Below are positions 1-17,434 of a stretch of DNA of 64,000 bases, piece after piece. Each line of letters starts with the position of its first letter. Position 1 is the first letter of the stretch. A model generated the notes under the pieces. That model did not search any database and had not been told where the DNA came from. It worked only from the letters and a program-made list of their open reading frames with translations. Origin of the DNA: a bacterium (GTDB lineage Archaea > Thermoplasmatota > E2 > JACPAO01 > JAHFTW01); the NCBI GenBank assembly GCA_040390065.1, contig JAZJZE010000009.1:506930-570929 (forward strand), read 5' to 3'. Made by a program: the position numbers and the translations under genes.

Positions 1-2968
1 GCCACAACTGGTCCGGGACGTTGACCGCGAGGTCCGTCCACGCCGGTTCGGCCTCCGCTTGACCATTGGTCTCTTCCTGGCGATTGTTCACGCACGTCAC
101 GCTCCAACACAACTCGTAATACGCGTTTCCGGCGCCTTGAATCATGGCATACCGCGTGACGTGTGCTCGAATCGACAAGTCCGCGTGCGGGTCCTGGTCG
201 ATGCTGTCTTTGACGCCGTCGCCATCCGTGTCGGGGTCTACTGGATTCGTGCGTGTTGAGACAAGTTCAAGCCAATCCCCGATACCGTCGCCATCGGTGT
301 CCTGCTTGAGGGGATTCGTGAAGTACGTCTTGTACACCCCGTAGACCTGAATCGTGACGCCCTTGACCTCGTTGTAGTCGCTCAAGCCGTCAAAGTCCGT
401 GTCAACCTTGGAGTCGCTGGTCTTCCAGTAGTCTTCCTCGCAATTGTTGAGGCCGTCGCCGTCGGCGTCCATGACCCTGACGAAGTTGTTCTTGACGGTC
501 TGCGCCTTGTCGGAGCCTACGCTAACCCAGAGTCGAATCTGGTAGCTGTTGATGACTTGGTCCGTTCCCGGCGGAAGGTTGCATGGGTAGGTATGGTCCG
601 CGTACGGGCCACTGTACGTGTGGGGCAGGTTGTCTCCCCAATCCCATTCGTACGTGAGTTGGCCGCGGCTGTACGGGTCGTAGCTACACGACGCATCGAC
701 GTGAACCACGGAATGGCTGGTCCCTTCCGCCGAGACGGTGAAGCAGACCTTGGGCGGGCCTAAGGCCGGCGGCGAGGGCGGATTCGACGGCGACGGGTTT
801 GTTGCCTGGTTGGCTGTGGGCGAGGATTTCGTGATGATGATGTTGTCGACGGAGCCCTGGACGGAGCCCCACCCTCCCGACGGTGTGGCGAAGTCCGTGC
901 TGCCGTAGGTTTGCATGCCAATCGTGCTGAACTGGAATTCGTCGCCTGCGGTCGTGCCGACTTGGCGGCTCCATGTCAGGACTTTCTTTCCGGTGCTGTC
1001 CGTGATCTCCAAGATCAGGGTCTTGGCGGCGGCCGTGTATGTCAGTTTGAACGATTGCTGGGGGTCGGTTTGGGAGCCCGGGCCGGCAGTGCCCACGTTG
1101 CAGGCCCAGCCGGGGGGCGGTCCTGATGCGGGGTTGTACGAGATGCAGTAGCCGGTCGGGTTGCCGACGTAGTCCGAGGTGTAGTCGTAGTAGAAGATGG
1201 CAAGCGTGCTGTAGCGGCCAAGGGCGCCGTTTCCGTCAGCCGGGCCCACGTAGAATGGCACGGCAAAACGCGTGCCCCCCTGCCGGCTCTCGACGTTCCA
1301 GTTCTCCGTAATCGTGAAGGTGTCCTGCATGGTCAGTGGCGCGTCGAGGGGCCGGCTGAAGTCCTCGTAGGAGGCATCGTTCATGTTGGACAAGAGCTGC
1401 ACGTTGTGGTTCCAGGCGTCCCAATGGATGTCGCTTAGGGGTTGGTCGTTTGTCCTTACGAATCCGTTTGCGTCATCGAAGGTGTAGACGGTACTGAAGT
1501 GGGGGACGTGGACGACGATGAGCCCATCGCTGGAGATTTCCGTTTCGAGGGTCAAGTTGTCCTCATTGCGGAAGGCGTAGCCGCTAAATCCCATGCCGTT
1601 GAGCCACGTCGTATTGTAGGCCACGTCCTGGCCCGACGTGTCATTGCCGCCGTCGAACGCAACGGCCAAGTGGTCCGACGGGGCCGCGACGGAAAGGTCG
1701 ACGGTTCCGTTGAGGCCGATGGCCGGGATGGTGCTTGCTACGGCCGTCGGGAGCGTGGCAAAGTCCACGACCATCGCGCGGTCCAGAAGTTGCACGGATG
1801 CCGGGTTGCCAATCGTGTAGAGGCTGCTTGAGCCGAGGGTGATTGCGGAGAAGTCCGTAATGGCGCCGCCGCCAGTCGTGAACTTGACGTAGGGGCCACC
1901 CAGGCCGTCCATGACGACGAAGGGCCGCGACGAACCCCAATCGTTTCCCAACAGGTTCACGATGGCCCCAGCGCGGAACACGGTTGTCGCATTCAAGGTC
2001 GGCGGCCCGGCAAAGAGTGTGGAAAGAAGGGTTGGGGTCAGCAGGCTCACGTTGAGGTCGACTTGGACACCGTTGGGCGTCGCTGGCATCTTGATGGGGG
2101 CATTCTTGAGGACGTCAAGAATTGCCGCGGCGTCGGTGATGCGGAACGTCGAATTCGATGGCCACGGCGCGCTCGGAATCACGTAGTGCGTCGCGGCGAC
2201 GTTGTCGGCATCATTCGATTCCAGAGTGACGTGGTTGGAGTTGGGGAAGACGGAAACGTCGTAGATGCCCGGCAGGGCCGATGTCCAATTGAAGACGAGT
2301 TCCTGGCTCTGGCCGGCCTTGATGATGGGCACGTACGCTACCTGCTGGAAGATGGAGTACTTGCCCTGGATGGAGACATCCAATGTCACGTTGACGACGG
2401 CCGCCGGTTGGCCGCCGAGGTTCCGGATGGTGGATTCGACGTAGAAACCGATTGGGTGGGGGATGACCTTGGGCTTTGAGGCGACCAGGTTCGCAAGGCC
2501 GGAGGTGCCCAGGATGGATTGGATGACGCCGCACGCATCCGGCAGCGCCGGCTTCACTCCGAGCCCAGGATCGGGCGCGGAGGGTAGCGAGCACGCCTTT
2601 GCGCACTTCGCAACCTTCACGCCAAGGGGTGTGGATGTAAGGTTGTTGGCGGTTCCCTGGGGGTTGGCCAAGGCGGAGTTGAGTGTCTTCGTCGTCTGGC
2701 CCGCAATGGATTGGGCGCATGCCACCGTGGCGTCGACTTGCTGCACGGGTGCCGACACGACCGAGGTCAGGTTGCCGGGGAGCTGGTTCGTCACGTTGGT
2801 AATCAATGGTTGCAGGGGCGGGATGTGCGGCAGGGGCGGAATGTTTGGCAAGGGCGGTAGGTTGGGCGTCGGTGGCACTTGGGCGTCGGCGGGTCCGCCA
2901 AGGCCGTTGAGGAGGAACGCTAGAGCGCATGCAACGGCGGGTAGCACTCGGGAAAGGTTGGGGTTCAC
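1..2968 (-). CDS. Large secreted/cell-surface protein (CARDB-like, PKD-like and DxDGDG Ca-binding repeats); runs off the left edge
   Basis: Not in the ORF track because it has no stop in the window. Manual translation from GTG 2968 (AGGTGA SD upstream) gives a signal peptide, Pro-rich linker, CARDB-like 'IRNLGGQPA...ESNDADN', PKD-like 'DASCSYDP...TYEWDWGD...ADHTY', and repeats 'DADGDGL', 'DTDFDGL', 'DTDGDGI', 'DTDGDGV'. Confidence 0.85.
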   Translation of the reverse strand, partial: MNPNLSRVLPAVACALAFLLNGLGGPADAQVPPTPNLPPLPNIPPLPHIPPLQPLITNVTNQLPGNLTSVVSAPVQQVDATVACAQSIAGQTTKTLNSALANPQGTANNLTSTPLGVKVAKCAKACSLPSAPDPGLGVKPALPDACGVIQSILGTSGLANLVASKPKVIPHPIGFYVESTIRNLGGQPAAVVNVTLDVSIQGKYSIFQQVAYVPIIKAGQSQELVFNWTSALPGIYDVSVFPNSNHVTLESNDADNVAATHYVIPSAPWPSNSTFRITDAAAILDVLKNAPIKMPATPNGVQVDLNVSLLTPTLLSTLFAGPPTLNATTVFRAGAIVNLLGNDWGSSRPFVVMDGLGGPYVKFTTGGGAITDFSAITLGSSSLYTIGNPASVQLLDRAMVVDFATLPTAVASTIPAIGLNGTVDLSVAAPSDHLAVAFDGGNDTSGQDVAYNTTWLNGMGFSGYAFRNEDNLTLETEISSDGLIVVHVPHFSTVYTFDDANGFVRTNDQPLSDIHWDAWNHNVQLLSNMNDASYEDFSRPLDAPLTMQDTFTITENWNVESRQGGTRFAVPFYVGPADGNGALGRYSTLAIFYYDYTSDYVGNPTGYCISYNPASGPPPGWACNVGTAGPGSQTDPQQSFKLTYTAAAKTLILEITDSTGKKVLTWSRQVGTTAGDEFQFSTIGMQTYGSTDFATPSGGWGSVQGSVDNIIITKSSPTANQATNPSPSNPPSPPALGPPKVCFTVSAEGTSHSVVHVDASCSYDPYSRGQLTYEWDWGDNLPHTYSGPYADHTYPCNLPPGTDQVINSYQIRLWVSVGSDKAQTVKNNFVRVMDADGDGLNNCEEDYWKTSDSKVDTDFDGLSDYNEVKGVTIQVYGVYKTYFTNPLKQDTDGDGIGDWLELVSTRTNPVDPDTDGDGVKDSIDQDPHADLSIRAHVTRYAMIQGAGNAYYELCWSVTCVNNRQEETNGQAEAEPAWTDLAVNVPDQLW

Positions 2969-3117
2969 GGGGTCACCTGTTCAATCGGCTTTTCTACGCG
3001 TGTGGGCCTAGCGGTGCTGCGGCTGGTGGTCGGTGCCCCACGCCCAAGGTCGATGCCAACGTGGCCCACAAATGGCCCACGTAGAGCCAAGACATAGAGT
3101 TTGTCCCAGGTTTGAGT

Positions 3118-3390
3118 ATGGGTCGCACGAAGATTCGAGGCAGCACTCCGGATTCCACGGATCGCATCCACGTCGCCGTCGACCGCGACTTGTTGAAGTG
3201 GATTGACGCCAACCTGGCGCCTGGTGGCCCGTTTGGCAGCATGACGCACGCCGTCGAGTTTGCCCTTCGCCACTTGCGCGACGAACAGGAAGCACTTCGT
3301 CAGGCGTGCAAAGACGGGAAAGTTCCCTTCAAGGATACCACAATGTGGCTGCTGTACCAGGAACTCCTGGACGAGTCCAGGCGCCGCTAA
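3118..3390 (+). CDS. Ribbon-helix-helix (CopG-like) protein
   Basis: 'RIHVAVDRDLLKWIDA...FGSMTHAVEFALRHL' fits the RHH strand-helix-helix pattern; divergent from the surface protein gene. Confidence 0.7.
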   Translation: MGRTKIRGSTPDSTDRIHVAVDRDLLKWIDANLAPGGPFGSMTHAVEFALRHLRDEQEALRQACKDGKVPFKDTTMWLLYQELLDESRRR

Positions 3391-4754
3391 GGCTGAAGCC
3401 ACCAATCCCCGCCCTTCTGCAGCTTTGCAAGGACGGGCGCCAATGAGACATCCGTGGCCGCATCCACCGCATAGGAAGCCTGCAAGGTGACGGCTACGCG
3501 AAGCCACTCCGCAGCCTTCTCTGCATGCGGGTGCGCGTCGCGCGCGCTCGCGAGGCTCGCGCAGCAGCGCGCGGCTTCGTAGGCATTCTCGGCGCGAAGG
3601 GGAACCAAGTCGATTCCCAGGCGGATTTCCTGCTGCAACCACAAGTCGGCCTCCGTGTGCATCAGCAACGCTTGCTCGATGCGGTTCAAGCCGGAAAGGC
3701 ATAAGCCGCGAACAAAGGTTGCTTCCGCGTCTGTAGGGTCAAGATCGCGTGCCCGGTCTACTTGGCGCAGGGCCTCCGCGAATCGGCGTTGGTTGACCAA
3801 CTCATAGGCCCATTCCCGGTACTCCCCGCCCTTGGCAGCAGCGACGGGGTCATGACCGGGTTGGCGGCGGTGAATGATGATTCGGCGTTGCGTGAATCGA
3901 ACGGTGGGCCAGGCCAGGACCGCGACCAGGGCGAGTCCGGCCACAGGCCACAACAGCCACGCAACAGGGCTGGCGGAACTGCGGGATGGCACAATCGCGT
4001 GGCCGTCTACAACGGCCTCGCCGTCGCCGGACAAGGCAGCAGTGATGGGAAGGGACGTGCCGCGGCCAGCAAGACGCGCCGCCAGATTTCCTGAGACGAC
4101 TAGGTGGTTTCCCGTCAGGGCGGTGGAGGCGCCGCCTACGTCGAGACTCCCCACCGCCGACTCCAACGCAAGCCCCGTCGTGCCAAGGTTGGCGTCCCCA
4201 TCCGTGAGCAAGGTAGGCGGCACCATGCCGAGAGGCACCATGAGGCGCCCATTGGTCACGTAGAGGTAAACCTCCACGTCGCGTCCGAAGATTTGAGACA
4301 TGTCGGGCACGGCGGCAGGAAGGAGGGGGGATTGTTGAGGGCCCGTTTGGACATCCTGCGTCTGGCCATTGGCGGTCAAGGTTGCATTCCATTTCCACAA
4401 GGACAGCACGAACGAGCCGGCAATTTCCACGACGCCAATGCACCCGGACCACGCCAGCGCGGCGCCGATTGAACGCGTCATCGGGGGACGCGCAGCATTA
4501 ACGTAGGGTACGCGTTGCAGCGTCGACGCGTCGGACGCGCTGGTAGATTGGCAGGTTGCCTTTACGGACGGCGGCGGAGCGCCGTCCACGGGGAAGACGT
4601 TCCACCGGAAGCTGTTTCGCGTTGCCGTCCCTTGCAGCGTCGCATCCGCGTAGTCCTGCGGTTGGGTGGTCGGGTTGACGTCCTTCGGATTTCCGGTGGC
4701 GTGGACGGAGACATCGGCGGAATCTACCTCCATGTGCAGCCGCTCGGCCGCCAT
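3387..4754 (-). CDS. Ectodomain + single TM + TPR-like membrane protein (start uncertain, no signal peptide seen)
   Basis: TM 'VAWLLWPVAGLALVAVLAWP' followed by TPR-like 'FAEALRQVDRARDLDPTDAEATFVRGLCL'; collinear similarity to 46578-48068. Confidence 0.7.
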   Translation of the reverse strand: MAAERLHMEVDSADVSVHATGNPKDVNPTTQPQDYADATLQGTATRNSFRWNVFPVDGAPPPSVKATCQSTSASDASTLQRVPYVNAARPPMTRSIGAALAWSGCIGVVEIAGSFVLSLWKWNATLTANGQTQDVQTGPQQSPLLPAAVPDMSQIFGRDVEVYLYVTNGRLMVPLGMVPPTLLTDGDANLGTTGLALESAVGSLDVGGASTALTGNHLVVSGNLAARLAGRGTSLPITAALSGDGEAVVDGHAIVPSRSSASPVAWLLWPVAGLALVAVLAWPTVRFTQRRIIIHRRQPGHDPVAAAKGGEYREWAYELVNQRRFAEALRQVDRARDLDPTDAEATFVRGLCLSGLNRIEQALLMHTEADLWLQQEIRLGIDLVPLRAENAYEAARCCASLASARDAHPHAEKAAEWLRVAVTLQASYAVDAATDVSLAPVLAKLQKGGDWWLQP

Positions 4755-5073
4755 CGAGAATCCGGGAATCGGTTGGGCATTAAGTGTTCGCCGCCGGGGG
4801 CCTTCGCGCCTGTAGGCGCTCCGGCAAGGCGGTCGGCGCCTGCTGGCGCCTGCGAAGAATCGGTGACGGCACATCACCGGTGAACGCACCCGCCAACGTC
4901 CTCTGGACGCGACGGGCAATCGCTGACTACGGGCCCCCGCGGGATTCACGTCGCCGCGTCTGAGGCAACCGCAGGATGCGCACCCGCTTGCGGGTGGTCG
5001 CCGTGGGATTGCGTCACGGGGCCCCGGCGCGTCGGCGCACCCGCCGCCAAGTCTGGTGGGGCCGGGCCCCAAC

Positions 5074-5199
5074 CCGGTAAACCCCGCCCGGCAAGAGCGT
5101 GAGCGCTTCGCCCGCCACCCCAACCATGCTGGGGCCAGCATGCGCTTTGGGTGGCGTGCTTTGCCTTCACGCCCTTTGCCGCAGCGGGGCTAAAGCCGG
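5074..5199. promoter_or_regulatory. Long imperfect hairpin (~125 nt) directly upstream of the mobile-element operon
   Basis: Nested inverted repeats: catgctgg/ccagcatg (5125-5142), cgccaccc/gggtggcg, gcgtga/tcacgc, ccccgc..cggcaa/ttgccg..gcgggg, ccgg/ccgg; ends 11 nt before ATG 5211. Confidence 0.6.
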
Positions 5200-5210
5200 C
5201 TCGGTGCCCC

Positions 5211-5759
5211 ATGGCCCCACCAGAATTTGCCGACGAGTGCCACCGAACTGCCTGCCCCGTGCCCCAGCCACACGGAGCCCACTGCCCCCGCATCCCGGGC
5301 GCCCGCCTCGCAGGCTGCCTTGAATGCGGCGCCACAATCCTGCTGGCCCACGACTACGCGCCGGCTACGGCGCGCTGCAAGACGTGCCGCGACGCGACGA
5401 CGACTGCCACGATGACGACGGACCGCGCGCCGACGGCGGATTGGCTACGCCGCTTCCGAAGCGAAGCAACGGACGACGAGATGCCGCTCGGCGAAGCCGT
5501 CCACACGCCCACCTCGGGCGACCGGCTCCGCGCGGCGGAAGTGACGATGCGCCTGCGAACCAGCGCCGCCGGCCGAGTCGTGACCTCGACGCCGACACGC
5601 AGCATCGGATGCGACGATGCCGGCCGCCCCGTACGCCCCGCCGCAAAGCGGCGCGAGGCAAGCGATGACCAAGACGACGTCGAGGAACCCCAGTCCGTGG
5701 CGCGCTTCGGCGGCCGACTGCCCGCCCTCGCCGGCTACCGTGCCCAGGCAGGTGCCTAA
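5211..5759 (+). CDS. Cys/His-rich putative Zn-finger protein
   Basis: CHRTAC..H..HC, CLEC and CKTC motifs; stop abuts the next ATG (TAAATG). Confidence 0.55.
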   Translation: MAPPEFADECHRTACPVPQPHGAHCPRIPGARLAGCLECGATILLAHDYAPATARCKTCRDATTTATMTTDRAPTADWLRRFRSEATDDEMPLGEAVHTPTSGDRLRAAEVTMRLRTSAAGRVVTSTPTRSIGCDDAGRPVRPAAKRREASDDQDDVEEPQSVARFGGRLPALAGYRAQAGA

Positions 5760-6245
5760 ATGGGCCCGAACCAGGCCACTGTTCGCCGGGCCAGCATCCT
5801 GGCTTGGGTTGAGGCCAATCCGGGCCAAGGCTTCCGCGCCCTTTCACGAGGAACCTGCATCCCGACCGGGACGCTGGCGCACCATCTTGGCATCCTGAAG
5901 CGACGTGGCCTCGTGGCGGACAGGGCGCTTGGCCCTCGCCGCTTGTTCTACCCCACCGACGCCATCGTGGACGACCCCGCCAAGGCGGCGATGAACCTTC
6001 ACCCCGGCTTGGCCGCCCTTTACGCGTTCGTGCAGGCCAACGGTCCCTGCATGCAGAACGTCGTTCTTGCCGCCTTCGAGGCGCAGGGTTGGCCGCGTTC
6101 CACGACGCAGCAGCGCCTCCGCCGCCTTGTGGCTGTCGGCGGCTTGCAGGCGGTGCGGGGCGTGCGGTCACTACGATACGCGGTCCAGGCACCCGCGGTG
6201 GCCCAGTTGCCTCTTGCCTCCCGCCTGCAGGTGGTGTTGGCATGA
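5760..6245 (+). CDS. Tandem winged-helix transcriptional regulator (COG3398-like)
   Basis: 'ILAWVEANPGQGFRALSRGTCIPTGTLAHHLGILKRRGLV' plus a second wHTH 'PRSTTQQRLRRLV'. Confidence 0.75.
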   Translation: MGPNQATVRRASILAWVEANPGQGFRALSRGTCIPTGTLAHHLGILKRRGLVADRALGPRRLFYPTDAIVDDPAKAAMNLHPGLAALYAFVQANGPCMQNVVLAAFEAQGWPRSTTQQRLRRLVAVGGLQAVRGVRSLRYAVQAPAVAQLPLASRLQVVLA

Positions 6246-6340
6246 CCACCAAGACAATCCAAGTCTGCTCCGTTTGCGGACGCGCCTGTCCCGGCGGCGA
6301 CTGCGCGCATCCGGCGTGTCCTTCGCAGCGGGTGTTCTAA
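6242..6340 (+). CDS. 32-aa Zn-finger microprotein
   Basis: MTTKTIQVCSVCGRACPGGDCAHPACP; ATGA overlap with the upstream gene and TAATG overlap with ardC. Confidence 0.55.
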   Translation: MTTKTIQVCSVCGRACPGGDCAHPACPSQRVF

Positions 6341-7257
6341 TGTCATCCGCGCGCCAGGCCGTGTACGCGAAGGTCACCGACGCCATCATGGGGAAGCTCC
6401 GCGAAGGCGTTGCGCCGTGGCACAAGCCCTGGAGCGATGCGGATCGGCCTCGCAACTTCGCCACCGGTCGAGCCTACTCCGGCATCAACGCATTCGCGCT
6501 CGGCTTGTTCGGGCCGACGCCGTATTGGCTGACCTTCAATCAGGCACGCCTGATGGATTGCCAGGTGCGCCAGGGGGCCAAGGGTGTGCCCATCCTGTTC
6601 TATGGTACGCAGACGCGGCAACGCTTGGTCAAAGGCAACAACGGGGCGGCCGTGGAGGATCATGAGGTTGGCTTCGTGCGGTACTTCCACGTCTTCAACG
6701 CCGTTGACGTGGACGGCATCGACGCCGCCAGACTCGGCCAATCGCCATCGCCCTTCGAGCCCATTGAGGTCGCTCAAGGGTTGCTTTCCGCCGTGCAGCC
6801 GACGCCGGAGATTAGGCATGGCGGCGACGTGGCTGCCTTCAACCCGGCCCGTGACGTGCTTCGGATGCCGCGGCCCGAGGACTTCGCTCGCAGCGTGGAC
6901 TACTACGCCATCCTCTTCCACGAACTGACCCACTGGACGGGCCACCAGTCGCGCCTCGACCGCGAGTCTTTGCGCGACGCGAAGAGCTTCGGGGACGAAT
7001 CGTACAGCCGCGAGGAACTGGTGGCCCAAATGGGCGCCGGCTTCCTATGCGCCTTGACGGGCATCCAAAACGACACCATCGAGCAGTCCGCAAGCTACCT
7101 CGACAATTGGCTCAAGCAACTCCAGAACGACCGCGGCCTACTCATCTCTGCCGCGAGCCAGGCGCAACGCGCCACCGACTACTTGACCCGCAGCTGGACC
7201 CAGCCCGCGGCAATCGGCGTGACCGACCAAGAAACGGAGGCCACAGCGGAATCGTGA
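6340..7257 (+). CDS. ardC: ArdC-family ssDNA-binding antirestriction protein (DUF1738 + zincin-like domain)
   Basis: 'GVAPWHKPW...PRNFATGRAYSGINA...YWLTFNQA...VRQGAKG', 'FHELTHWTGHQSRLDR', 'YSREELVAQMGA', 'SASYLDNWL'. Confidence 0.92.
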   Translation: MSSARQAVYAKVTDAIMGKLREGVAPWHKPWSDADRPRNFATGRAYSGINAFALGLFGPTPYWLTFNQARLMDCQVRQGAKGVPILFYGTQTRQRLVKGNNGAAVEDHEVGFVRYFHVFNAVDVDGIDAARLGQSPSPFEPIEVAQGLLSAVQPTPEIRHGGDVAAFNPARDVLRMPRPEDFARSVDYYAILFHELTHWTGHQSRLDRESLRDAKSFGDESYSREELVAQMGAGFLCALTGIQNDTIEQSASYLDNWLKQLQNDRGLLISAASQAQRATDYLTRSWTQPAAIGVTDQETEATAES

Positions 7258-7329
7258 AGCCTCCCCTTGAATCGTGAGCGCCATTGCGGCGACCTTTCCC
7301 CCTTCCCCAGCGAATGCCAGGTGAAACCC

Positions 7330-8706
7330 ATGAAGAAAATTGAAACTGAAGTGCCAGCCACGAGTGGCGAGAAGCTGCTCGTTCCCGTCAACCAAGTCCG
7401 CGAGTCCCCGGACAATGGCCGCATCAACTACGATGAAGCCGCCCTGAAGGACCTGATGCAATCCATCAAGTCCACGCGCCTGGAAGAAGACGTGGTAGTG
7501 CGACGCGTCGAAGCCGACGTGTACGAGGTCGTGGATGGGCACCGTCGATTCCGTGCTGTGCAGCGCCTCGGCTGGGACGCCGTGCCGGTCCTCGTCAAGC
7601 CCTTGACGGAGGAGGAGGCGCGGTTGTACCGTGTGGCGACGATCTTCCAACGCGCCAACGCAACGCCGTACGAGGAAGCACGCTACTTGGCCGCGGCTTT
7701 GAAGAATCCGGGCATGACGCGGCAACTCTTGTCGCAAACGTGCGGCATCAAGCCCGGCACCCTGCGAAACCGATTGGAACTCCTGGAGTTTCCGGAGCAG
7801 GTCGCCAAACGCGTCGGTGTCGATGGATTCGCGGCGGAGCACGCCCGCATCCTTGCCAGCCTTGCTGCCTACCCCGACGCCTTGGCAGTTGGCTTGAAGG
7901 TGGCGGAGGACAAGGACACTGAGGGTACGATGCGCTCCGCTCCCCGCTTCTTCGAGGACGTCAAGAAGGCGCTCGTCAAGGCCAACGCTGCCAGGGACCC
8001 CACGAGCAACCGCCTCTGGGAAGTGCGAAACGCCTTCCCGACTTTCGAGGGCCAAGCCGGCAAGTTGGCTTGCGTGAAACACAAGACCCAGTTCGGTGAA
8101 GCTGTCCTGGTCCTCGACGTTGCGGCCTTTGATGGACTCGTGGACAAGGCGAAGGCGACGTTGGAGCGCCGCAAGGAAAAGGACGCCAAGCCGAAGGAGG
8201 ATGCCGACGAGGCACGCCGGATTCGGCGCCGGGAGCGGCAACTCGAAGTCGAACACGCCGCCAACGAATGGAAACGGGATGCGCTGCGGGAGGCCGCCTT
8301 TTCGCGCCTCGGCAACATCAAGGAGGTTGAGGCCTCGGACTTGGCCAGCCCCCTTCTGGACGCCCTGGAAGTCGGCATCGACGAGAACGACATCGAGCCC
8401 CTGGCAGAGGCGGCGGGCGTCCCCGTGGAACGCCTGCGAGGCTTCCTTGCGTGGAACAATGAGGGCGAAGCCGCCAGCCAGGACCTCATACAGCACTCGA
8501 CGCCGATTGAGTTGCTGCGACTGGTGCTCGCCTTGAGCGTGGCTCGCAGCCTCGATGGCCAGTCCGGGACTTGGAGCACTCTGTGCGGGCACTGGACCGG
8601 CAAGACCATGGCGGCTTGGGACGACGCCGCCACGGAGGCGGCCCGCGGCATCGTCAAGGCCAAGGGCAAGCAGGGCGAAGCGGAGGAAGCCGAGGCAACC
8701 GCCTAG
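7330..8706 (+). CDS. ParB/RepB/Spo0J-family protein with a long C-terminal region
   Basis: 'LKDLMQSIKS...VVVRR...YEVVDGHRRFRAVQRLGWDAVPV', 'TPYEEARY' and an HTH; AGGTGA SD before ATG 7330. Confidence 0.88.
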   Translation: MKKIETEVPATSGEKLLVPVNQVRESPDNGRINYDEAALKDLMQSIKSTRLEEDVVVRRVEADVYEVVDGHRRFRAVQRLGWDAVPVLVKPLTEEEARLYRVATIFQRANATPYEEARYLAAALKNPGMTRQLLSQTCGIKPGTLRNRLELLEFPEQVAKRVGVDGFAAEHARILASLAAYPDALAVGLKVAEDKDTEGTMRSAPRFFEDVKKALVKANAARDPTSNRLWEVRNAFPTFEGQAGKLACVKHKTQFGEAVLVLDVAAFDGLVDKAKATLERRKEKDAKPKEDADEARRIRRRERQLEVEHAANEWKRDALREAAFSRLGNIKEVEASDLASPLLDALEVGIDENDIEPLAEAAGVPVERLRGFLAWNNEGEAASQDLIQHSTPIELLRLVLALSVARSLDGQSGTWSTLCGHWTGKTMAAWDDAATEAARGIVKAKGKQGEAEEAEATA

Positions 8707-8729
8707 ACGCGACTGGAGCGTGCTGACCC

Positions 8730-8945
8730 TTGACTTGGACTGACCGGCAACGCCTCGAACTCATGGGGCTGTTGGACGATGCCGCCCTGGACCACTTGCG
8801 CGGCGAGTACGCTCCGGCGTACCAGGCCGTCATGGACGCCTGCGACACGTGCCTGCACAGCTCCGACTTCACCCACGACGATGCCGTGGCTGAATTGGAT
8901 GTCGTCCTGGAGTGGCTCCTCAAGTCGCAAGGGGTCCCCGTATGA
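8730..8945 (+). CDS. Small acidic hypothetical protein
   Basis: Coding-like composition; follows ParB and precedes a pyrimidine-rich tract. Confidence 0.5.
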   Translation: MTWTDRQRLELMGLLDDAALDHLRGEYAPAYQAVMDACDTCLHSSDFTHDDAVAELDVVLEWLLKSQGVPV

Positions 8946-8957
8946 TGATCCGGGCAG

Positions 8958-8981
8958 CCCTCCCCTTTTCCCCCTTTTTCC
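8958..8981 (+). terminator. Putative archaeal-type pyrimidine-rich terminator
   Basis: ccctccccttttccccctttttcc shortly after the last gene of the operon. Confidence 0.4.
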
Positions 8982-9116
8982 GGGGCGGTGCGCCGAATGG
9001 TTCGGCCAGGGGCTCTTGGGTTGCTAAGCCAGTTCTTCTTGTCTTTGTGGATGCTTCTGAAACCCGCGTCTTCACGCGTGTTTCCACATCCTTTCTCATA
9101 CTGGCCTCTACCGTAT

Positions 9117-9177
9117 CGTACGTTCGTAGACCCCCCTTTATGGGGGGTCTCCTCCGTCCGTACGTTCGTGTACGTAT
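9117..9177. repeat. Origin-like repeat cluster
   Basis: Perfect 9-bp inverted repeat agacccccc-tttat-ggggggtct (9128-9150) flanked by direct repeats cgtacgttcgt (9117-9127, 9159-9169). Confidence 0.55.
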
Positions 9178-9321
9178 GGAAAAAGCGGAACCCCCCGAAG
9201 CCCAGTTCCGAACCTCCCCCACCCATAAAATAGGTTTAACACCAAAGAGTGTTTACCGGAGGGCCCCCGACGTCGTCGTCGGTTCCCCAGCCACCGTTGG
9301 CACGGGTTCCGCAGAACCCGT

Positions 9322-10566
9322 TCAAACGCCGTTGTCGTACTCGCCCTTGCGCGCCGTCTCAATCCAGCGCTTGGCGACGACGGGGGTGATGTCGAGGCCC
9401 TGGATGCGGACCTTGCGGCTGCGCTCCAATTCGCGGATCTTGTTGGACAGCGCCGTTGCGTCCTCGGCGGCCAACTGCTGGACGCTGCGGATGCCGGCCT
9501 TCACGAGGACTTCCGCCGATTGGGGCCCGATGCCCTTGAGGCGGATGAGTTTCGCCATCGCTTGCCACTCGGCGACGAGTTCGGGGGTCGCGTCGATGGT
9601 CTGCGCGATGTTCTCGGCGTTCACGGCGAGAAGCTGCGGGATGGTGATGACGCCCTGCGCGTTGAGGCGTGAGGCGTACACCTTGCCGATGCCTTCGATC
9701 TCCATGATGTGCTGCTTCTCCTCGCCGGGCTTGAGGACGACGGCCTGCTTCTCCGCCTTGGACTGCATGTCCATGGCGAAGTCCTCCATCTCCTTCTGCT
9801 TCACCAGCAGGAGGGATTCGCGCTTGCGCAGGTTGGCGACCTCGTTGTCGAGGGTCTGCCGGAGAGCGGCGTGCTCCATGTCGCGGCGCTCGATGGAGTC
9901 CATCGTCTCGTCGACGCGGACGTTGAGTTTCTTGTGGCCGGACTCGAGGGCGGCGACGCGCTCCTTGAGTTCCTGCAAGAGGGGCGAGTTGACCTTGTCG
10001 GCGGTGCGCAGGGCCTTCACGTCGCCAAGCAGGCTCGCGATGTCCTTCTGCATCTGCTCGATGGCACTCCGGTAGGCCGGCTCCTTCTCGAGAGCAAGGG
10101 CGCGGTTCATGGCGTCCTGGGCCATCTTCATGGCCTGGTTGGCGGCGCGGACGGCGTCCTGGATGCGCGAGTCCCACGCGTTGAACTCCTTGCGGATGTC
10201 GTCACGCATGCCGGCCAAGTCGCGGCGCAGGCCGTCGCGGAACTCGCGGGCCTCGTCGAGTTCGCGCTTGCGAGCCTCGGCCAGGCGGTCGGCTTCCAAC
10301 TTGAACATCTTGTCGACCTTCTTGTCGATGTCGAAGATGACGCCCACACGAGTGAGGAAGAGCGTGAGGATGATGGTCACGACCACGATGGCCAACAGGG
10401 CCGTGCGGGCGGCTTGCTCGAGGTTGAGCACACCTGCTCCGGGCAGGTACCCGAGACCGTAGATGAAGGCGAAGGCGACGCCGACCACCAAGATGACGCC
10501 AAGGAGGTTGAAGAAGCGGCGCTGCCGTGCCGCGAAGTCGTCAGGGGGGGCCAGGGGGTCTGCCAT
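9322..10566 (-). CDS. Membrane-anchored coiled-coil protein with C-terminal DUF4332-like tandem HhH domain
   Basis: Two N-terminal TM helices, a long coiled coil, then 'IMEIEGIGKVYASRL' and 'LIRLKGIGPQSAEVLVKAGIRSV'. Confidence 0.8.
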   Translation of the reverse strand: MADPLAPPDDFAARQRRFFNLLGVILVVGVAFAFIYGLGYLPGAGVLNLEQAARTALLAIVVVTIILTLFLTRVGVIFDIDKKVDKMFKLEADRLAEARKRELDEAREFRDGLRRDLAGMRDDIRKEFNAWDSRIQDAVRAANQAMKMAQDAMNRALALEKEPAYRSAIEQMQKDIASLLGDVKALRTADKVNSPLLQELKERVAALESGHKKLNVRVDETMDSIERRDMEHAALRQTLDNEVANLRKRESLLLVKQKEMEDFAMDMQSKAEKQAVVLKPGEEKQHIMEIEGIGKVYASRLNAQGVITIPQLLAVNAENIAQTIDATPELVAEWQAMAKLIRLKGIGPQSAEVLVKAGIRSVQQLAAEDATALSNKIRELERSRKVRIQGLDITPVVAKRWIETARKGEYDNGV

Positions 10567-10790
10567 GGAAGGCCGGCAGGGATTCCCCTGTAAAGCGTTT
10601 TCAGGTGACGCCTGCGGGATTCCAGAGGACAGAGCCAAGCCGTCCGACGCGTGGCGGCCACTGTGGGGGCCGCGGCTTCAACAGATGGGGCGGACGCTCC
10701 CCTGCCTGTCGAACGCCAACGACCGATTCCGCCCCTCCTGCGACGACGTCGACGCCCACAAAGGAATCGAAGGATTGGACCGCAGGCCAG

Positions 10791-10830
10791 GACGGCCGCG
10801 GACGGGCCTGGACGGCCATGGACGTCCGCG
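10791..10830. repeat. Four degenerate tandem 10-mers
   Basis: gacggccgcg / gacgggcctg / gacggccatg / gacgtccgcg, intergenic downstream of truD. Confidence 0.55.
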
Positions 10831-10893
10831 AGGGTTCCTCCAACTTTGCCAGAGGGAAGTGAACGTGGCGCCCGCGACACCCCCGACGGCCGG

Positions 10894-12180
10894 TCAGTAG
10901 TCGCCAATCGGGGCTTTCATGAATTCGCGCAGCACGACTGTTGCGTAGGACCCCTTGCCCAGAGCGAAGGCGAAGACCGGATCGCCGTCGACCCATGAGA
11001 CGGTGAGGTCGCGCACGGGTTGCAGGATGCCGCGGCGCCGTCCCTTGCTGGCCATTTCGGGGAGTTCGCGGACGCGGAAGTCTGCCGGGTGGACGCCTTC
11101 GTCGTCGAGGACGGCCTGCTCGACGTCGCCGGGGCGGCCTTGCGCCATCTCCACGGTGAGCCCGACGAGGGGCGCGGTGAGGGTTGCGCGTCCTTTGTCG
11201 AGTTCTCGTTGCACGCGCTCCAGGCTTGCCGCTGTGACGAGGTGGGTGTGGGTGCCGTCTTCGTCCACGCCCATGACGCGGTCGCCGACGTGGGCCCGTG
11301 CAACGCCGAGTCCGGCCTCGACGCGGGCGGAGAGGATGAGGTTGAACAGGTAGGACTGGTGGGCGTGGACGAAGAGTTGCAGCAGGTTCGGCGGCAATGC
11401 GCCGAGGGCGTTGCGCCAGTCGCCGGGTTTGCGAAGCAGCCGTTCGAGGATGGCCCGTTCGCCGTCGAGGTGGCGCGGATAGACGTCCAACGCGGCGCCT
11501 GGGTCGCGGGTCGTCTCGTAGACGGCGCGGGCGGCCAGTGCTTCTTCGCGTTCGCCGGCGACCGGATTACCGCAGTACAGGCGGACGGCTTCCTCGAGGT
11601 CGCCGTCGACGATGGCGCGGCCGACTAGGTGCGTGATGGCGCGCCAGGAGCCGCCGAAGCGCTGTGGCCCGAAGAAATTCGGCACTCCGCCCTCCGCGGC
11701 GATGGCCTTGGCCGCGGCGTCGACGGCGACGGTATCACGCGTCGAGTCGCGCACGCGGATGACGAAGCGGTTGCCCTCGTGGGCCCCGGCAAAGTGGGCC
11801 TTGCGCGTCGCGTACGTCTCCAGGACCTCGACGTCCGAGAGGGTGGAGAGTTTGCCCACGTCCGCGACGGGGGCCTTGAACGTGAACCACTGTTCCGTGA
11901 CGGCGCGCTTGTCCTTCATGCCGGCAAAGGCGACGTGCTCCCGGTAGATGCCAAGGCGCTTTGCGGCCTCGCCTGCGAAGCGGTTGGTTTCCCAGTTCTT
12001 CAGCCGGATGCGCGCGGCGGCATGGGCGCCCTCGGCAAACGGCTTGGGGCCCTCTCCGGTCTCGATGACGACGAAGTCCTCAGGCTCGCCGCGCAGCTTG
12101 CCGCCGATGCCGGCCGTCGCGGTGAGGTACGAGGCGAGGCCGAGCGCGCGCTCCTCGTCGGGTGGAACGGGTCGCGTCAA
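10894..12180 (-). CDS. truD: tRNA pseudouridine(13) synthase
   Basis: 'GIGGKLRGEPEDFVVIE', 'FAGMKDKRAVTEQW', 'GVPNFFGPQRFG', 'HAHQSYLFN', 'FALGKGSYATVVLRE'; start estimated (TTG). Confidence 0.95.
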   Translation of the reverse strand: MTRPVPPDEERALGLASYLTATAGIGGKLRGEPEDFVVIETGEGPKPFAEGAHAAARIRLKNWETNRFAGEAAKRLGIYREHVAFAGMKDKRAVTEQWFTFKAPVADVGKLSTLSDVEVLETYATRKAHFAGAHEGNRFVIRVRDSTRDTVAVDAAAKAIAAEGGVPNFFGPQRFGGSWRAITHLVGRAIVDGDLEEAVRLYCGNPVAGEREEALAARAVYETTRDPGAALDVYPRHLDGERAILERLLRKPGDWRNALGALPPNLLQLFVHAHQSYLFNLILSARVEAGLGVARAHVGDRVMGVDEDGTHTHLVTAASLERVQRELDKGRATLTAPLVGLTVEMAQGRPGDVEQAVLDDEGVHPADFRVRELPEMASKGRRRGILQPVRDLTVSWVDGDPVFAFALGKGSYATVVLREFMKAPIGDY

Positions 12181-12316
12181 CGAGGCGGCGAGGAGGCATC
12201 CCGTGAAAAGGTCAAGCGCGGGGGACTTGCGGGTGCGTCCAGCGGACCGGACGGCGGCATCGGTGGGCTTTCCGTCATGGCAAACGGCACCCGTCGCGCG
12301 CCTCAAGGCCAGGGGA

Positions 12317-12690
12317 CGGCCACGTCATCCTCCGACGGCGGCGCGGGCAACGAGGTGGCCGCGTGGCTGGGTGTGGGAGGCCATGGAGAACAGGAATCAA
12401 GTGGAGAGAAACGGAATGCGTTCTCGTTTTCCCGTGGTCTCCGGTTCTCCCAGGCCGTCTTTGCCTGAAAGGCCGCGAAGTCGCCGAAGAGTGGAAAGGT
12501 CGCTTTCCGCGTTTTTCGGTGGCTTCCAGCTCTTTCAGGCCCCCGGCGGCCCCAGCCATCGCTTCGCTCCGCTTGCCATGCCCTCGCACGCCCGCGCTGC
12601 GCCGCGGGCAGCTCGCCCCGACCGGGGGCTGCGTCGCCTCCCTGCCATTCCTTCAAGGCGTCGGCGCCGTCGGAGGAACGTGGGAATGGC
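12317..12690. repeat. Composite structured dispersed element, copy 1
   Basis: Module A hairpin 12317-12361, central hairpins 12379-12456 and 12463-12540, module C 12541-12690; A and C recur in the same order at 61542-61893. Confidence 0.85.
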
Positions 12691-12747
12691 GCGTCGGTCT
12701 TGACCCGCAGGTTGGCCGGTCTTCCGCGGCTTCCTGGATGTCCAGGC

Positions 12748-12911
12748 CTAGAGTCTGACGCAAAAGTAGCCTGTCCGCCGGGCAATCCGCAGCGTGCCGG
12801 CTGCTAGGAAGGGGCCCGCAGGCGTACTGGAGGTACGGCCAGGGCCCCTGACGACGCAGACGGTCGGCTCCGGGCAGCCCGGCGTCAGGGGACTTTTGCG
12901 TCAGACGTTAG
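12748..12911. mobile_element. MITE-like element (~160 bp)
   Basis: Perfect 15-bp terminal IR gtctgacgcaaaagt (12753-12767) / acttttgcgtcagac (12892-12906), extendable to 20 bp with 2 mismatches; internal aggggccc..cgtac/gtacg..gggcccct hairpin; no transposase ORF. Confidence 0.75.
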
Positions 12912-13195
12912 TTGCGCTTCTTCAACTCGGCTGCAAACGCGTGCTCGAGCGCGTCGAATTCGCCGATCAGGGACTTGATGGTGCGCTTGAGGACGACGTC
13001 CGGCTTGACCTTGCCTTTCGTGCGCACGAAGATCTTCGGCGTGGAGAGGCTCGGGTGTTCGATGATGTATTCGGCGAAGTCGACGTCCTTGTCCGCGAGC
13101 AGGGCCTGCTTGATGGGGTTGAGGAGCGTCTCGTTCTCGCCCACGACCTCGATCTCCAATTCGTTGGCGGTGCTGGAGATGACGGTGAGCTTCAT
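12908..13195 (-). CDS. rpoL: RNA polymerase subunit L (Rpo11)
   Basis: 'ELEIEVVGENETLLNPIKQALLADKDVDFAEYIIEHP'. Confidence 0.95.
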   Translation of the reverse strand: MKLTVISSTANELEIEVVGENETLLNPIKQALLADKDVDFAEYIIEHPSLSTPKIFVRTKGKVKPDVVLKRTIKSLIGEFDALEHAFAAELKKRN

Positions 13196-13218
13196 GGGCT
13201 TCGCGACAAGGAGGTGTT

Positions 13219-13225
13219 CTTTAAG
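13219..13225 (-). promoter_or_regulatory. Putative TATA box of rpoL
   Basis: CTTAAAG 24-30 nt upstream of the ATG in a GC-rich background, consistent with a leaderless transcript. Confidence 0.5.
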
Positions 13226-13274
13226 GCTTGGGGCCGGGCCGGATGGCCGGCCGAGCCGGAGAAAGCACTCCGTA

Positions 13275-14384
13275 TCACTGGATAGCGAGGCCTTTCTTCA
13301 TGATGCGGCGGCGCATGACGAGGTAGATGCCGAAGCTCACGACCATGAGCACGACGGAGTAGGCGGCGGCAAGCTCGAGTTGGCCCGCCTCGGCGAACTC
13401 GTAGATGGCGATGGGGCTGGTCTTGAGGACGGCGGAGACGACGATGATGGTGGCGCCGAATTCGGCGACACTTCGGCTGAAGACGAGGACGCCGCCGGCC
13501 AGCAGGCCCGGCTTGATGAGGGGAAGGACGATGGTGCGGAACACCGTGAAGCGGCCGGCTCCCAGGCTGCGCGCGGCCATCTCCAGGTTGGGGGGGATCT
13601 GTTCGAGGACGGTGCTGACGGTGCGCACCATGTAGGGGAACGTCTCGAGGACGTGGGCAAAGACCACGATCCAGAGAGTCCACGTGAAGGACATGGGGCT
13701 CTTGAAGAGGAAATCCGTGAGCGCGTGGATGGGGCCGTAGGGGCCGTAGAATGACAGCAGCGCCAGGCCGACGACGACGCTCGGCAGCGCGATGGTCAGG
13801 TTGCTCATGGCGTCCATGGCCTGCGATCCGAAGATGCGGCGCCGGGCGGTGGCGTAGGCGATGAGCGTGCCAAGAAACAGTTGCACGCAGACGACCAGGG
13901 TGGCCACTTCGAAGCTGCGAAACAGCGGCTGGTACAGGGCGGGCTTGCTGAAGAGTTCCTTGTACCAGTGGCCGGTGAATCCGCCGAGGCCCTGGAAGAT
14001 GGATGGCGAGAGGCTGAATGCGGCGACCGTCAGGAGGGGGCCGAGGACGAAGAAGGCGAACAATGCCCAGATGAAGATGGTCCAGGTGAGCCGCCCGACG
14101 TTCTGGCGCACCGTCAGCCAAGGGCGCCGTGCGGGGGGAAGGCCGCGCCCGACGGGTTCCCCGGGGCCGGGAGGGCGCGGTGCTGGGCGCACGATGGCGG
14201 CCTGAGGCCGGGCGGGTTGAGGGGCTGGCGGCTGTGGGCCCGTGGGAACTGGCGGCCTCGCGGGTGCGGGCGTCGGCGCACGACTTGGGACCGGCATGCG
14301 CACGACCGTCGGCGGGCCGGTCTGTGGCGGGCGCGGCGGCGGCTGGGGCGGTGCCCGCGGCGGCGGCTTTGGCTTGGCGGTCAC
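13275..14384 (-). CDS. ABC importer permease with Pro-rich N-terminal extension
   Basis: EAA-loop motif 'LEMAARSLGAGRFTVFRTIVLP', 'FSRSVAEFGA'; GTGA overlap with the binding-protein gene. Confidence 0.9.
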   Translation of the reverse strand: MTAKPKPPPRAPPQPPPRPPQTGPPTVVRMPVPSRAPTPAPARPPVPTGPQPPAPQPARPQAAIVRPAPRPPGPGEPVGRGLPPARRPWLTVRQNVGRLTWTIFIWALFAFFVLGPLLTVAAFSLSPSIFQGLGGFTGHWYKELFSKPALYQPLFRSFEVATLVVCVQLFLGTLIAYATARRRIFGSQAMDAMSNLTIALPSVVVGLALLSFYGPYGPIHALTDFLFKSPMSFTWTLWIVVFAHVLETFPYMVRTVSTVLEQIPPNLEMAARSLGAGRFTVFRTIVLPLIKPGLLAGGVLVFSRSVAEFGATIIVVSAVLKTSPIAIYEFAEAGQLELAAAYSVVLMVVSFGIYLVMRRRIMKKGLAIQ

Positions 14385-16229: not shown

Positions 16230-16379
16230 GCCCCTCCGCGCGAGCCGAGTGCCAAAGCCGTGCTCATCTGCACCGCCACACGGGTCGCGTCCAAGATAAG
16301 GCTGCCGCGGTGGGCAACAATCCTCCGTCAGGGATGAAACGCGGATGGGCCGCGGAATCCGCGGCGCAGCCGGAGACCG

Positions 16380-16958: not shown

Positions 16959-17080
16959 TGCGTCGCCGACGGCCAGCCGCTTTAAAACCGTCCGCTTGGG
17001 CGCCATAGGCCATGGCTGTGCCGTGGACGGGCCGGCCACCAAGACAAGGGAAAAATAGCTCGGCGCAGAAACAATGTCCC

Positions 17081-17434
17081 ATGGTGCGCAAGCGCCGCCC
17101 TGAACTCCAGACCGCCCTGCAGCGCCTTGGCGCCAAGCGCGTGGAAGCCGTGCTCGTGTCCCTTCTTGCCCAGGAAGGGGAACTGGGCACCAGGCAAATC
17201 GTCGAGACGAGCGGCCTGCGTCAACCCGAGGTCTCGGTCGGCATGCGCGACCTGCGGCGGCGCGGCTGGGTCGAGGCAGACGCCATCGCGGGCCACGGCA
17301 AGGGTCGGCCCATGCACCGCTACCACCTCGCCGTCTCGCCGGCCGTGCTGAGGCGGCACTACGAAGAGCAGGGCAAACGCACGGTGGCCGACTTCGAGCA
17401 GGCGCTGCGCCTCGTACGCAAGTCACTGTCCTGA
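17081..17434 (+). CDS. Winged-helix transcriptional regulator (COG4738-like)
   Basis: 'SGLRQPEVSVGMRDLRRRGWV...GKGRPMHRY'. Confidence 0.8.
   Translation: MVRKRRPELQTALQRLGAKRVEAVLVSLLAQEGELGTRQIVETSGLRQPEVSVGMRDLRRRGWVEADAIAGHGKGRPMHRYHLAVSPAVLRRHYEEQGKRTVADFEQALRLVRKSLS

Follow-up and report, generated by a model that had tools for sequence, protein, structure and literature searches.

The block at the locus and its insertion boundary

The window analysed is a stretch of 64,000 nucleotides (assembly GCA_040390065.1, contig JAZJZE010000009.1, positions 506,930 to 570,929), in which a block at 5074-9240 carries six co-oriented open reading frames (ORFs) whose stops and starts touch or overlap; they lie between a 108-nt hairpin and a repeat-rich non-coding stretch. 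All coordinates are positions of the window, and negative values lie to its left. A first-pass annotation of the same DNA had described six co-oriented genes that include ArdC and ParB, which ORF calls and Pfam confirm, and an archaeal setting, which is borne out by an adjacent TruD gene that matches Pfam and by the closest named relative, a metagenome-assembled genome of a Thermoplasmata archaeon. That annotation compared the block to the leading region of a bacterial conjugative plasmid. We conclude that the block is very probably the right-terminal module of a family of integrative elements that use a tyrosine integrase and reside in one Thermoplasmata genus, and nothing that we found links it to conjugation.

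The genome of the window (G000) is 89% complete; related genomes are designated G002, G004, G006, G007, G008 and G155, with C-numbers for contigs. In the closest relative, G004, whose DUF4332 ortholog is 85% identical, TruD is followed by DUF4332 and then by the RFC small-subunit gene, with a gap of about 550 bp between the latter two. In G000 this same interval is filled by 16.5 kb (copy A, window -7215 to 9255), and from window 9256 (L027 19186) onward the sequence again aligns with the G004 empty site. The island has a G+C content of 0.58-0.66, and that of the left flank is 0.69-0.71. A search of 41 genomes, G000 included, turned up ArdC in 2; apart from G000 itself it was detected in G006, 1 of 12 other members of the genus, and in none of the 28 more distant genomes. 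The first-pass annotation had proposed looking for an empty site in close relatives, and G004 provides one for copy A as well as for the second copy described below; this, together with genes not found in most relatives, identifies the block as foreign mobile DNA, as had been supposed, and not as conserved synteny.

A repeat search shows that the cluster of inverted and direct repeats reported at the end of the block is real: CGTACGTTCGT occurs at 9117-9127 and again at 9159-9169, flanking a perfect hairpin with an 8-bp stem, GACCCCCC/GGGGGGTC (H2). The 150 nt that contain it have a fold z-score of -6.2 on one strand and -6.0 on the other, and on neither strand was any of 200 shuffles as good. 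The subterminal fold recurs among the copies: besides copy A (z-score -6.2), it is seen in copy C (-9.9) and in G004 (-6.3); the sequence is 86% identical to that of copy C, and the same architecture is seen in the element on G004:C2. The terminal rod folds better on the template strand of the operon in 3 of 3 copies. Of its 58 pairs, 7 show compensatory changes; shuffling gave 2.9 +/- 1.3, with a single shuffle in 500 reaching the observed number, and slid controls gave 0-1. The comparison covers three sequences, with the structure derived from the same alignment.

Beyond the rod, all three right ends in G000 share one layout, in which GGAACCCCC-N-GTTCCRAACCTCCCCCACCC is followed by a C-poor spacer of 15-22 nt, the arm CACCAAAGAG and roughly 6 nt that close with TA, beyond which the host DNA is unrelated. 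The arm CACCAAAGAG ends 11 elements and appears inverted at the left ends of copy B and of the G007 and G008 elements. At the right junctions of G004:C2 and C8, the element arm and the host flank together form inverted arms of about 15 bp around GGGGCT(AA/GG). Inverted arms around an 8-bp overlap are the typical shape of a tyrosine-recombinase core, and the right terminus looks like such a core site, composed of CACCAAAGAG, about 6 nt and an 8-bp sequence that is repeated at both junctions. The 8-mer CCGGAGGG stands on the host side of copy A and of G002:C14, CCCGGGCC is shared by G002:C13 and G008, and (A)CGGGGCT by G004:C2 and C8. That the same 8-mers recur at unrelated places suggests that the elements are targeted in a sequence-directed manner. 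What had been described as an origin-like (oriT-like) site is the terminus of an integrase-borne element at its insertion boundary, and can be read as a putative attachment-site (att) arm with a core.

Two other readings of this end were considered. The terminal motif is ruled out as a direct attL/attR repeat, since each copy contains it a single time and no left end has it. An outward TATA promoter in the A/T-rich spacer before CACCAAAGAG, from which transcription would enter purN in copy B or the integrase gene in a circular form, is weakened by spacers that are purine-rich in G007 and G155.

The genome contains at least two further right ends beside that of copy A. Window 2937-6497 matches the start of contig C2 at 70-78% identity, the part homologous to C2:6606-4781 beginning at window 2937, and C2 ends inside ArdC; window 8994-9259 matches the end of C8 at 86%, and window 9187-9262 the start of C48 at 78%. 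C8 and C48 share an initial 55-mer inside the acidic ORF, which marks an assembly fork out of a shared repeat. The host genes that flank the element on C2 (about 22 kb in) and on C48 are adjacent in G004, so that C2 and C48 represent opposite sides of one further insertion, copy B, of about 24.5 kb. Copy B encodes a tyrosine integrase (C2:19725-21011; Phage_integrase 1.9e-12, PHROG integrase 2.5e-22, weak Xer-type matches) that begins about 50 nt inside the left end. Its ends are perfect 13-bp terminal inverted repeats, CTCTCTTTGGTGG and CCACCAAAGAGAG, and its junction direct repeat matches at 7 of 8 positions. The third right end, copy C, lies on C8, 177 bp from tRNA-Val. From the start of ArdC on C2 and the end of the acidic ORF on C8 and C48, we infer that copies B and C carry ParB as well. 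The block had been suspected of being a remnant without an integrase: copy A does lack one and looks partly decayed, while copy B carries a tyrosine integrase. We regard copy A as a probable decayed copy, and it is probably immobilised because it lacks both the integrase and the left end.

Table 1. Features of copy A and its right end, in window coordinates
Feature	Position	Strand	Remarks
Secreted CARDB/TSP3-repeat protein	1-2968	-	3' part of 1404-aa gene; CARDB 9.5e-6, TSP_3 0.0031 (Pfam)
92-aa ORF	3112-3390	+	Leftmost gene common to copies A and B
TPR-containing membrane protein gene	3387-4730	-	TPR_16 3.3e-5 (Pfam)
Block near-identical in copies A and B	5040-5260		Contains the hairpin, the outer stem 5046-5063 / 5213-5230 and the ORF1 start
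Imperfect-palindrome hairpin	5082-5189		108 nt; ends 22 nt before the ORF1 ATG
ORF1	5211-5759	+	182 aa; Cys-rich N-terminus, remainder low-complexity; ATG fixed from copy B paralog
Winged-helix DNA-binding protein (wHTH)	5760-6245	+	HTH_HVO_0163_N 2.5e-8 (Pfam)
32-aa Cys/His ORF	6242-6340	+	Likely Zn ribbon; backbone gene
ArdC	6340-7257	+	ArdcN 6.9e-27 and MPTase-PolyVal 1.1e-36 (Pfam)
ParB	7330-8706	+	ParB_N 2.1e-17 and HTH_ParB 3.7e-8 (Pfam)
Acidic ORF	8730-8945	+	60-71 aa; C-terminus recurs in copies B and C
T-runs CCCCTTTTCCCCCTTTTTCC	8958-8985	+	3' of operon; candidate archaeal terminator, read from sequence
Structured subterminal region	9036-9185		H1 at 9049-9091; rod of ~95 nt with H2 (9129-9149) at its tip and the CGTACGTTCGT copies within it
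Family-wide terminal motif	9187-9224		GGAACCCCCC-N8-GTTCCGAACCTCCCCCACCC
C-poor spacer	9225-9239		Precedes terminal arm
Terminal arm CACCAAAGAG	9240-9249		Followed by TGTTTA; element right end at 9255/9256
CCGGAGGG, candidate 8-bp crossover (overlap)	9256-9263		Host side; present once in the G004 empty site

Ends, backbone and cargo of the element family

The exact terminal motif is found in 3 of 197 genomes of the class, all from one genus, and a reversed-pattern control gives 0; when up to two mismatches are allowed, 6 of the 32 genomes in the family contain it, and the control gives 1 hit. The full architecture of motif, spacer, CACCAAAGAG and TA is present at 11 of the 15 sites listed, namely three in G000, two each in G002 and G004, one each in G007, G008 and G155, and one on a metagenome contig. 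The four listed sites without a terminal arm are on three metagenome contigs and at another position in G007; one site in G155 appears to be a chance match. Elements for which both ends were found range from about 3.7 to 28 kb. The G007 element (about 9.9 kb) runs from a left end, CTCTTTGGTG, through an integrase to its right end, with the direct repeat TGGGACCT on both sides. The G008 element (about 3.7 kb), whose listed ORFs are an integrase and small ORFs, has C(C)GGGCCAT on both sides, and in the element on G004:C2 (about 28 kb) the integrase adjoins tRNA-Gln and TACGGGGCTAAG stands at both junctions. The junction direct repeats of these three elements measure 8-12 bp.

The motif also occurs in other surroundings. 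Three metagenome contigs (L111, L112 and L114) carry GGAACCCCC-N-GTTCCRAACCTCCCCCACCC without the CACCAAAGAG arm, beside GC-rich palindromes, and the motif may be older or wider than the element family. On G007:C10, two terminal motifs at positions 1237 and 1501 lie 264 bp apart with CACCAAAGAG only after the outer one; the pair may be a tandem or nested remnant.

Near the right ends, homologs of the wHTH protein are encoded in the elements on G004:C2 (39% identity) and G004:C12, with a weak relative in G008 seen by tblastn only (28% to the G004 protein). Homologs of the 32-aa Zn ORF occur on G004:C2 (42%) and G004:C12 (52-64%), and the N-terminal 49 residues of ORF1 are 57% identical to an ORF of the G004:C12 element. 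No ArdC or ParB is present at the right ends on G004:C2 and G004:C12 or in G008. ArdC was not found in G002, G004, G007 or G008, whose elements share the ends, and among these elements a ParB is seen in only one: the G002:C13 protein is 26-31% identical, has the same two domains and lies about 260 bp before the end of the element. Because elements in four other genomes keep their ends without ArdC, the ArdC-ParB-acidic ORF set is cargo of the G000 elements and does not define the module.

The same conclusion follows from the single other ArdC of the genus. Its locus in G006 holds wHTH and ArdC only, with no inverted repeat of at least 18 nt within 80 nt and no terminal motif. In a broader survey of 80 ArdC loci, only 3 had a tblastn match to this ParB at 1e-4 in the flank retrieved, though the sensitivity of that search is low. 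ArdC plus ParB is not supported as a defining pair, given related elements that share ends without ArdC and a G006 ArdC without hairpin or motif. The check proposed in the first-pass annotation, whether the hairpin and the terminal motif travel with ArdC and ParB next to relaxase or VirB4 genes, succeeds insofar as both travel with related elements; they do not accompany the G006 ArdC, and G000 gave no VirB4-type or PF03432 relaxase match above cut-off. The small Zn-finger ORFs, which had been put forward as anti-defence candidates, belong with wHTH to the conserved backbone, and these genes are for that reason more likely to encode regulators or excision factors. Near the G006 ArdC, a 760-aa ORF (G006:C10 15845-18127) resembles a family-B DNA polymerase by eye, and that neighbourhood may be a different kind of mobile element.

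The ArdC protein combines an ArdcN domain (residues 7-119), predicted to bind single-stranded DNA (ssDNA), with a C-terminal zincin metallopeptidase domain (MPTase-PolyVal, residues 157-274), in whose translation the HExxH motif can be read as HELTH. Its PHROG match is 'anti-restriction protein' (8.3e-68), and its closest relatives are the G006 protein (51%), followed by bacterial proteins (40-42%) and then by some from methanogens (32-39%). ParB is of the partition type, scoring 100.5 bits against NCBIfam TIGR00180 (cut-off 58.45) and containing a GHRRFRA box (GxxRxxA type) in its translation; an in-frame TTG at 7267 would allow a longer start. At E<=1e-10 only 3 relatives appear among the scored candidates of a collection of 5.8 billion proteins; within the class, 17 of 197 genomes encode relatives, none of them above 34% identity. 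No ParA was noticed among the element ORFs and none lies beside ParB, no dedicated ParA search having been run. No parS was identified for ParB; H1 and the terminal motif are ruled out in this role, as G004 elements that lack ParB keep both. ORF1 and the acidic ORF have no match in Pfam, PHROGs or NCBIfam, and the 32-aa ORF has none in Pfam or NCBIfam. Downstream, the T-runs CCCCTTTTCCCCCTTTTTCC are a candidate for terminating transcription of the operon.

The remainder of copy A lies to the left. The CARDB/TSP3 protein gene is cargo within the same 16.5-kb island, and the 92-aa ORF has no match in Pfam, PHROGs or NCBIfam. The copy B counterpart of the TPR protein has 517 aa with an N-terminal hydrophobic leader, which is encoded within the extra 3 kb of that copy, and the copy A gene is probably truncated at its 5' end, with the signal-peptide part absent. 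Within the 3 kb of copy B that are absent from copy A, a defence-like pair is found at C2 1906-3527, with GmrSD_N (DUF262) at 8.4e-30 followed by RiboL-PSP-HEPN at 1.2e-13. A secreted protein of 2900 aa with YD-type repeats, as judged by eye, is encoded at C2 6610-15309, in the same relative place as the different, 1404-aa CARDB/TSP3 protein of copy A, and these giant surface proteins look like exchangeable cargo.

Several observations concern possible target sites and other repeats. An apparent left end beside tRNA-Gln on C19 was considered as a fourth copy and is more likely an unoccupied target of the G004:C2 type. On C2, 21 nt at 30076-30096 are identical to the 5' part of the C19 tRNA-Gln and lie about 130 bp upstream of tRNA-Gln(ttg) (30228-30300); they may be the scar of a past integration, and the adjoining tRNA-Gln(ttg) is orthologous to the target of the G004:C2 element. 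The window itself contains no tRNA. At 12272-12724, it holds an intergenic repeat of about 400 bp that occurs in dozens of copies at 70-85% identity on many G000 contigs and may be an element resembling miniature inverted-repeat transposable elements. A second, palindromic repeat family is represented at 12748-12912, where 165 bp match C3:30924-30760 at 100% identity and sites on C4 and C5 at about 83%, with an inverted match to itself as well. This repeat ends where an rpoL-like ORF (12908-13195, minus strand) ends; we take the adjacent ORF to be RpoL by eye, without a database match.

The hairpin upstream of the operon

The hairpin that precedes the operon is significant, and at about 108 nt it is shorter than the 125 nt first assigned to it. 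Its RNA fold has a z-score of -5.67, with 0 of 200 shuffles as good, and its DNA folds have z-scores of -4.24 (sense) and -5.45 (antisense); in a looser context of 156 nt the value is only -2.79, and 3 of 200 shuffles do equally well. Among 419 windows of 120 nt across 2900-9300, both strands considered, it ranks first in stability. Block 5040-5260 is almost invariant between copies A and B, and its flanks are about 78% identical. The copy B hairpin (RNA z-score -7.95; DNA -8.58 antisense, -6.72 sense) has an identical lower stem and a swapped apex that still pairs. In G004:C2, a rod of 145 nt with unrelated sequence stands directly upstream of the first gene of the terminal operon (RNA -4.8 sense, -8.6 antisense; DNA -4.45 sense, -5.63 antisense), and in G004:C12 a rod of 115 nt spans the start of the ORF1 homolog (RNA -5.0 sense, -5.8 antisense). 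A long hairpin is thus found before the terminal operon in all four copies folded (A, B, G004:C2 and G004:C12), in three unrelated sequences, and in all four it folds better on the template (antisense) strand of the operon. The RNA energies of the antisense and sense strands are -79.6 and -67.7 kcal/mol in copy A, and -85.1 and -79.2 kcal/mol in copy B. The start codon is covered by the outer stem in copy A and by the 3' arm in G004:C12. The upper stem at 5112-5160 (CCACCCCAA ... TTTGGGTGG) is loosely like the inverted terminal arms (CCACCAAAGAG ... CTCTTTGGTGG) and could be an internal pseudo-site for the integrase.

We think that the upstream hairpin is a conserved cis element, and that its most likely role is control of the operon through an antisense transcript or a leader structure over the start of ORF1. 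Antisense and leader control is known from FinP/traJ and CopA/CopT. A more specific proposal, in which structured antisense or leader RNAs control the operon and the hairpin, possibly together with the terminal rod, encodes them or is their target, is compatible with an integrative element, and we put it forward tentatively as a possibility of less than even weight. It is favored by the short distance from the hairpin to ORF1 and the stems over the start codon, by a structure that is kept while the sequence differs, by the near-invariant block, by the compensatory changes in the rod, and by the greater stability of the antisense strand, which arises via G-U pairs. Against it, no clear antisense promoter or oligo-T terminator is readable in the sequence, Rfam gives no match at E<=1 in window 1-20000 apart from a spurious chance hit to an internal ribosome entry site, and the covariation comes from those three sequences and an alignment that also supplied the structure.

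Another way to read the hairpins, which we consider unlikely, is as signals recognized in folded ssDNA, either for Frpo/ssi-like priming or promoter activity or as recombination substrates like attC or the CTX attP. Integron attC sites are imperfect palindromes of 57-141 nt that are conserved in structure and not in sequence, are strand-biased, and serve as substrates of a tyrosine recombinase. The hairpins here are likewise structure-conserved and strand-biased palindromes, a resemblance that serves as a lead only; unlike attC sites, they form no cassette array, and the hairpin does not lie at the insertion boundary in any comparison made. The longest run of A and T within the hairpin is 3 nt, so there is no room for a TATA-box-like promoter mimic, and the Frpo-like promoter that the analogy of the first-pass annotation would put there finds no counterpart in the sequence. 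If the hairpins were nevertheless read as folded ssDNA, the family would be an archaeal mobile element with a single-stranded stage, that stage would account for the carriage of an ssDNA-binding ArdC, and the functional analogy first drawn would be right even without a recognizable conjugation apparatus.

An integrative element weighed against other readings

An archaeal analogue of a conjugative leading region would combine entry as ssDNA, a hairpin acting as a promoter or priming site (Frpo/ssi-like), early genes and an oriT-like end. Several features agree with this: ArdC is typical of conjugative elements, all six genes point towards the terminal site, a long hairpin precedes the operon in every copy folded, whatever its sequence, and the fold bias towards the template strand is shared by 4 of 4 hairpins and 3 of 3 terminal rods. 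Leading regions carry anti-defence or establishment genes, and the domains and PHROG match of ArdC point to a gene of this kind. The transfer genes themselves are a different matter. Six-frame profile searches of the G000 contigs gave a best match to AAA_10 (VirB4-type) of 18.2 bits on C10, below the cut-off of 27.5, and no match to TraG-D_C, to CagE_TrbE_VirB or to PF03432, the only relaxase family searched. A weak T4SS-DNA_transf match on C19 (16.5 bits, cut-off 20.1) is not VirD4 but HerA, next to Hef. No transfer gene is present among the ORFs scanned in copies A and B, and the G008 element is only about 3.7 kb long. These missing genes are not proof, since the genome is incomplete and the middles of the elements are unassembled. 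The putative origin, in addition, coincides with an exact insertion boundary that has the shape of a recombinase core, and the hairpin contains no mimic of a TATA box or transcription factor B recognition element (BRE).

Comparison with described systems also argues against the conjugative reading. In the bacterial Frpo/ssi leading regions treated in PMC11541004, anti-restriction-type and ParB-like genes are co-oriented behind a long hairpin that is more stable on the template strand, as at our locus. Frpo as defined there mimics a double-stranded -35/-10/UP promoter, and its definition calls for those mimics and a mapped oriT (PMC11541004); here, no oriT, relaxase or type IV secretion system was found, there is no promoter mimic, the 'origin' is a recombination end and the host is an archaeon. 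According to PMC6563490, archaeal conjugative plasmids and putative integrative and conjugative elements (ICEs) lack relaxases and may move double-stranded DNA. Its putative archaeal ICEs with ParB-TFIIB operons are like the present elements in joining an orphan ParB-like gene to a transcription-factor-like gene in an integrated element; they differ in carrying VirB4/VirD4 homologs and in a median size of 64 kb, whereas here a wHTH gene stands in place of TFIIB and no transfer ATPase was found (PMC6563490). We judge the leading-region reading to be very unlikely. What survives of it is that the hairpin and terminal site do travel with related elements, though not as a leading region and an oriT.

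A provirus or a rolling-circle plasmid, with the hairpins as single- or double-strand replication origins, is highly improbable. Long, strand-biased imperfect palindromes, large secreted proteins as cargo and integrase-mediated integration would all suit such an element. However, a PHROGs scan of 39 proteins of copies A and B matched only the integrase, wHTH, ArdC and ParB, the larger ORFs of the two copies have Pfam matches only to secreted-protein repeats and defence-type genes, and neither set includes a capsid, packaging ATPase, Rep/HUH or primase. A viral contig collection contained no relative of ParB and no exact match to the terminal motif, and ORF1, which is small, Cys-rich and of low complexity, does not look like a Rep enzyme. 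That the block is ordinary conserved chromosome, or an artefact of assembly or binning, has a negligible probability: contigs of one sequencing run cover the island and its flanks at equal depth (about 12) and one contig spans from the host flank to window 5103, but this reading is already contradicted by the G004 empty sites, by genes missing from most relatives, by a G+C content below that of the left flank and by paralogous copies at two other loci, each with its own empty site or its own flank.

The integrative element, which we favor, has points against it as well. The terminal C-rich motif is nearly invariant though the two integrases compared are only about 32% identical, which is unusual for integrase arm sites. 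An 8-bp repeat with terminal inverted repeats also fits a transposase; none was seen in the Pfam and PHROGs scans of ORFs, the only searches in which one was sought. Copy A has neither an integrase nor a left inverted repeat, and belongs to the family by its right end and its homology to copy B; copies B and C are themselves split over contigs, with the ArdC-ParB middle unassembled. The G002:C14 element shows the ends, but tblastn finds no integrase for it. As a weaker point, contigs of four sequencing runs show no circular junction, excision product or empty-site variant of this organism; the joints listed are short on either side and belong to contigs of other runs with low likeness. Finally, the roles given below to wHTH, the Zn ORFs, ArdC and ParB are predictions from sequence throughout.

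In an integrative element of this kind, the integrase would recombine a core in which an 8-bp overlap is enclosed by a pair of inverted arms, each about 15 bp long (CACCAAAGAG with a further 5-6 nt), and the overlap would be left as a direct repeat at both junctions after integration. The 250 bp or so inside the right end, with the rod, H1 and the GGAACC...CCCCCACCC motif, may serve as an accessory arm of the attachment site, on which the backbone wHTH and small Zn proteins would likely act as directionality or regulatory factors. ArdC, ParB and the acidic ORF would be cargo inserted between the backbone genes and the end, and would most plausibly aid a newly arrived or excised copy: ArdC by acting against restriction, and the orphan ParB in DNA binding or silencing, or in segregation of a circular form. 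Lambda att, loxP, FRT and dif all have two inverted arms around an overlap of 6-8 bp that is found at both junctions after integration. The present ends resemble such core sites, also in having an accessory arm and a gene for a small DNA-binding factor beside the site. They differ in using several 8-mers (CCGGAGGG, CCCGGGCC, (A)CGGGGCT and TGGGACCT), in an accessory arm that consists of a conserved folded rod and a C-rich motif, and in being known from sequence alone.

In the terms of PMC6563490, the element is a cryptic integrated element. Those described there from Thaumarchaeota are likewise integrase islands, mostly below 20 kb and some at tRNA genes, with variable cargo and no hallmark genes of viruses or conjugation. 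The present family is distinguished from them by its Thermoplasmata host, a nearly invariant right terminus, terminal inverted arms, 8-bp junction repeats, long hairpins and the carriage of ArdC; 'anti-restriction' occurs 0 times in the main text of PMC6563490. Our literature search, by title and abstract, found no report of integrated elements of archaea that carry ArdC. Elements of this kind are known; the family, its exact ends and the conserved hairpins appear to be undescribed in the literature searched.

Mobile elements of uncultured Thermoplasmata are poorly described, and one family can now be defined by its ends, target repeats, backbone and cargo. Here ArdC of bacterial type and a partition-type ParB without a partner are carried by an archaeal island that is not conjugative, and finding the two together should not by itself be taken to indicate conjugation. 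Archaeal integrases may have a new signal, cis-regulatory or for recombination, for which the folded terminus and the conserved hairpin are candidates.

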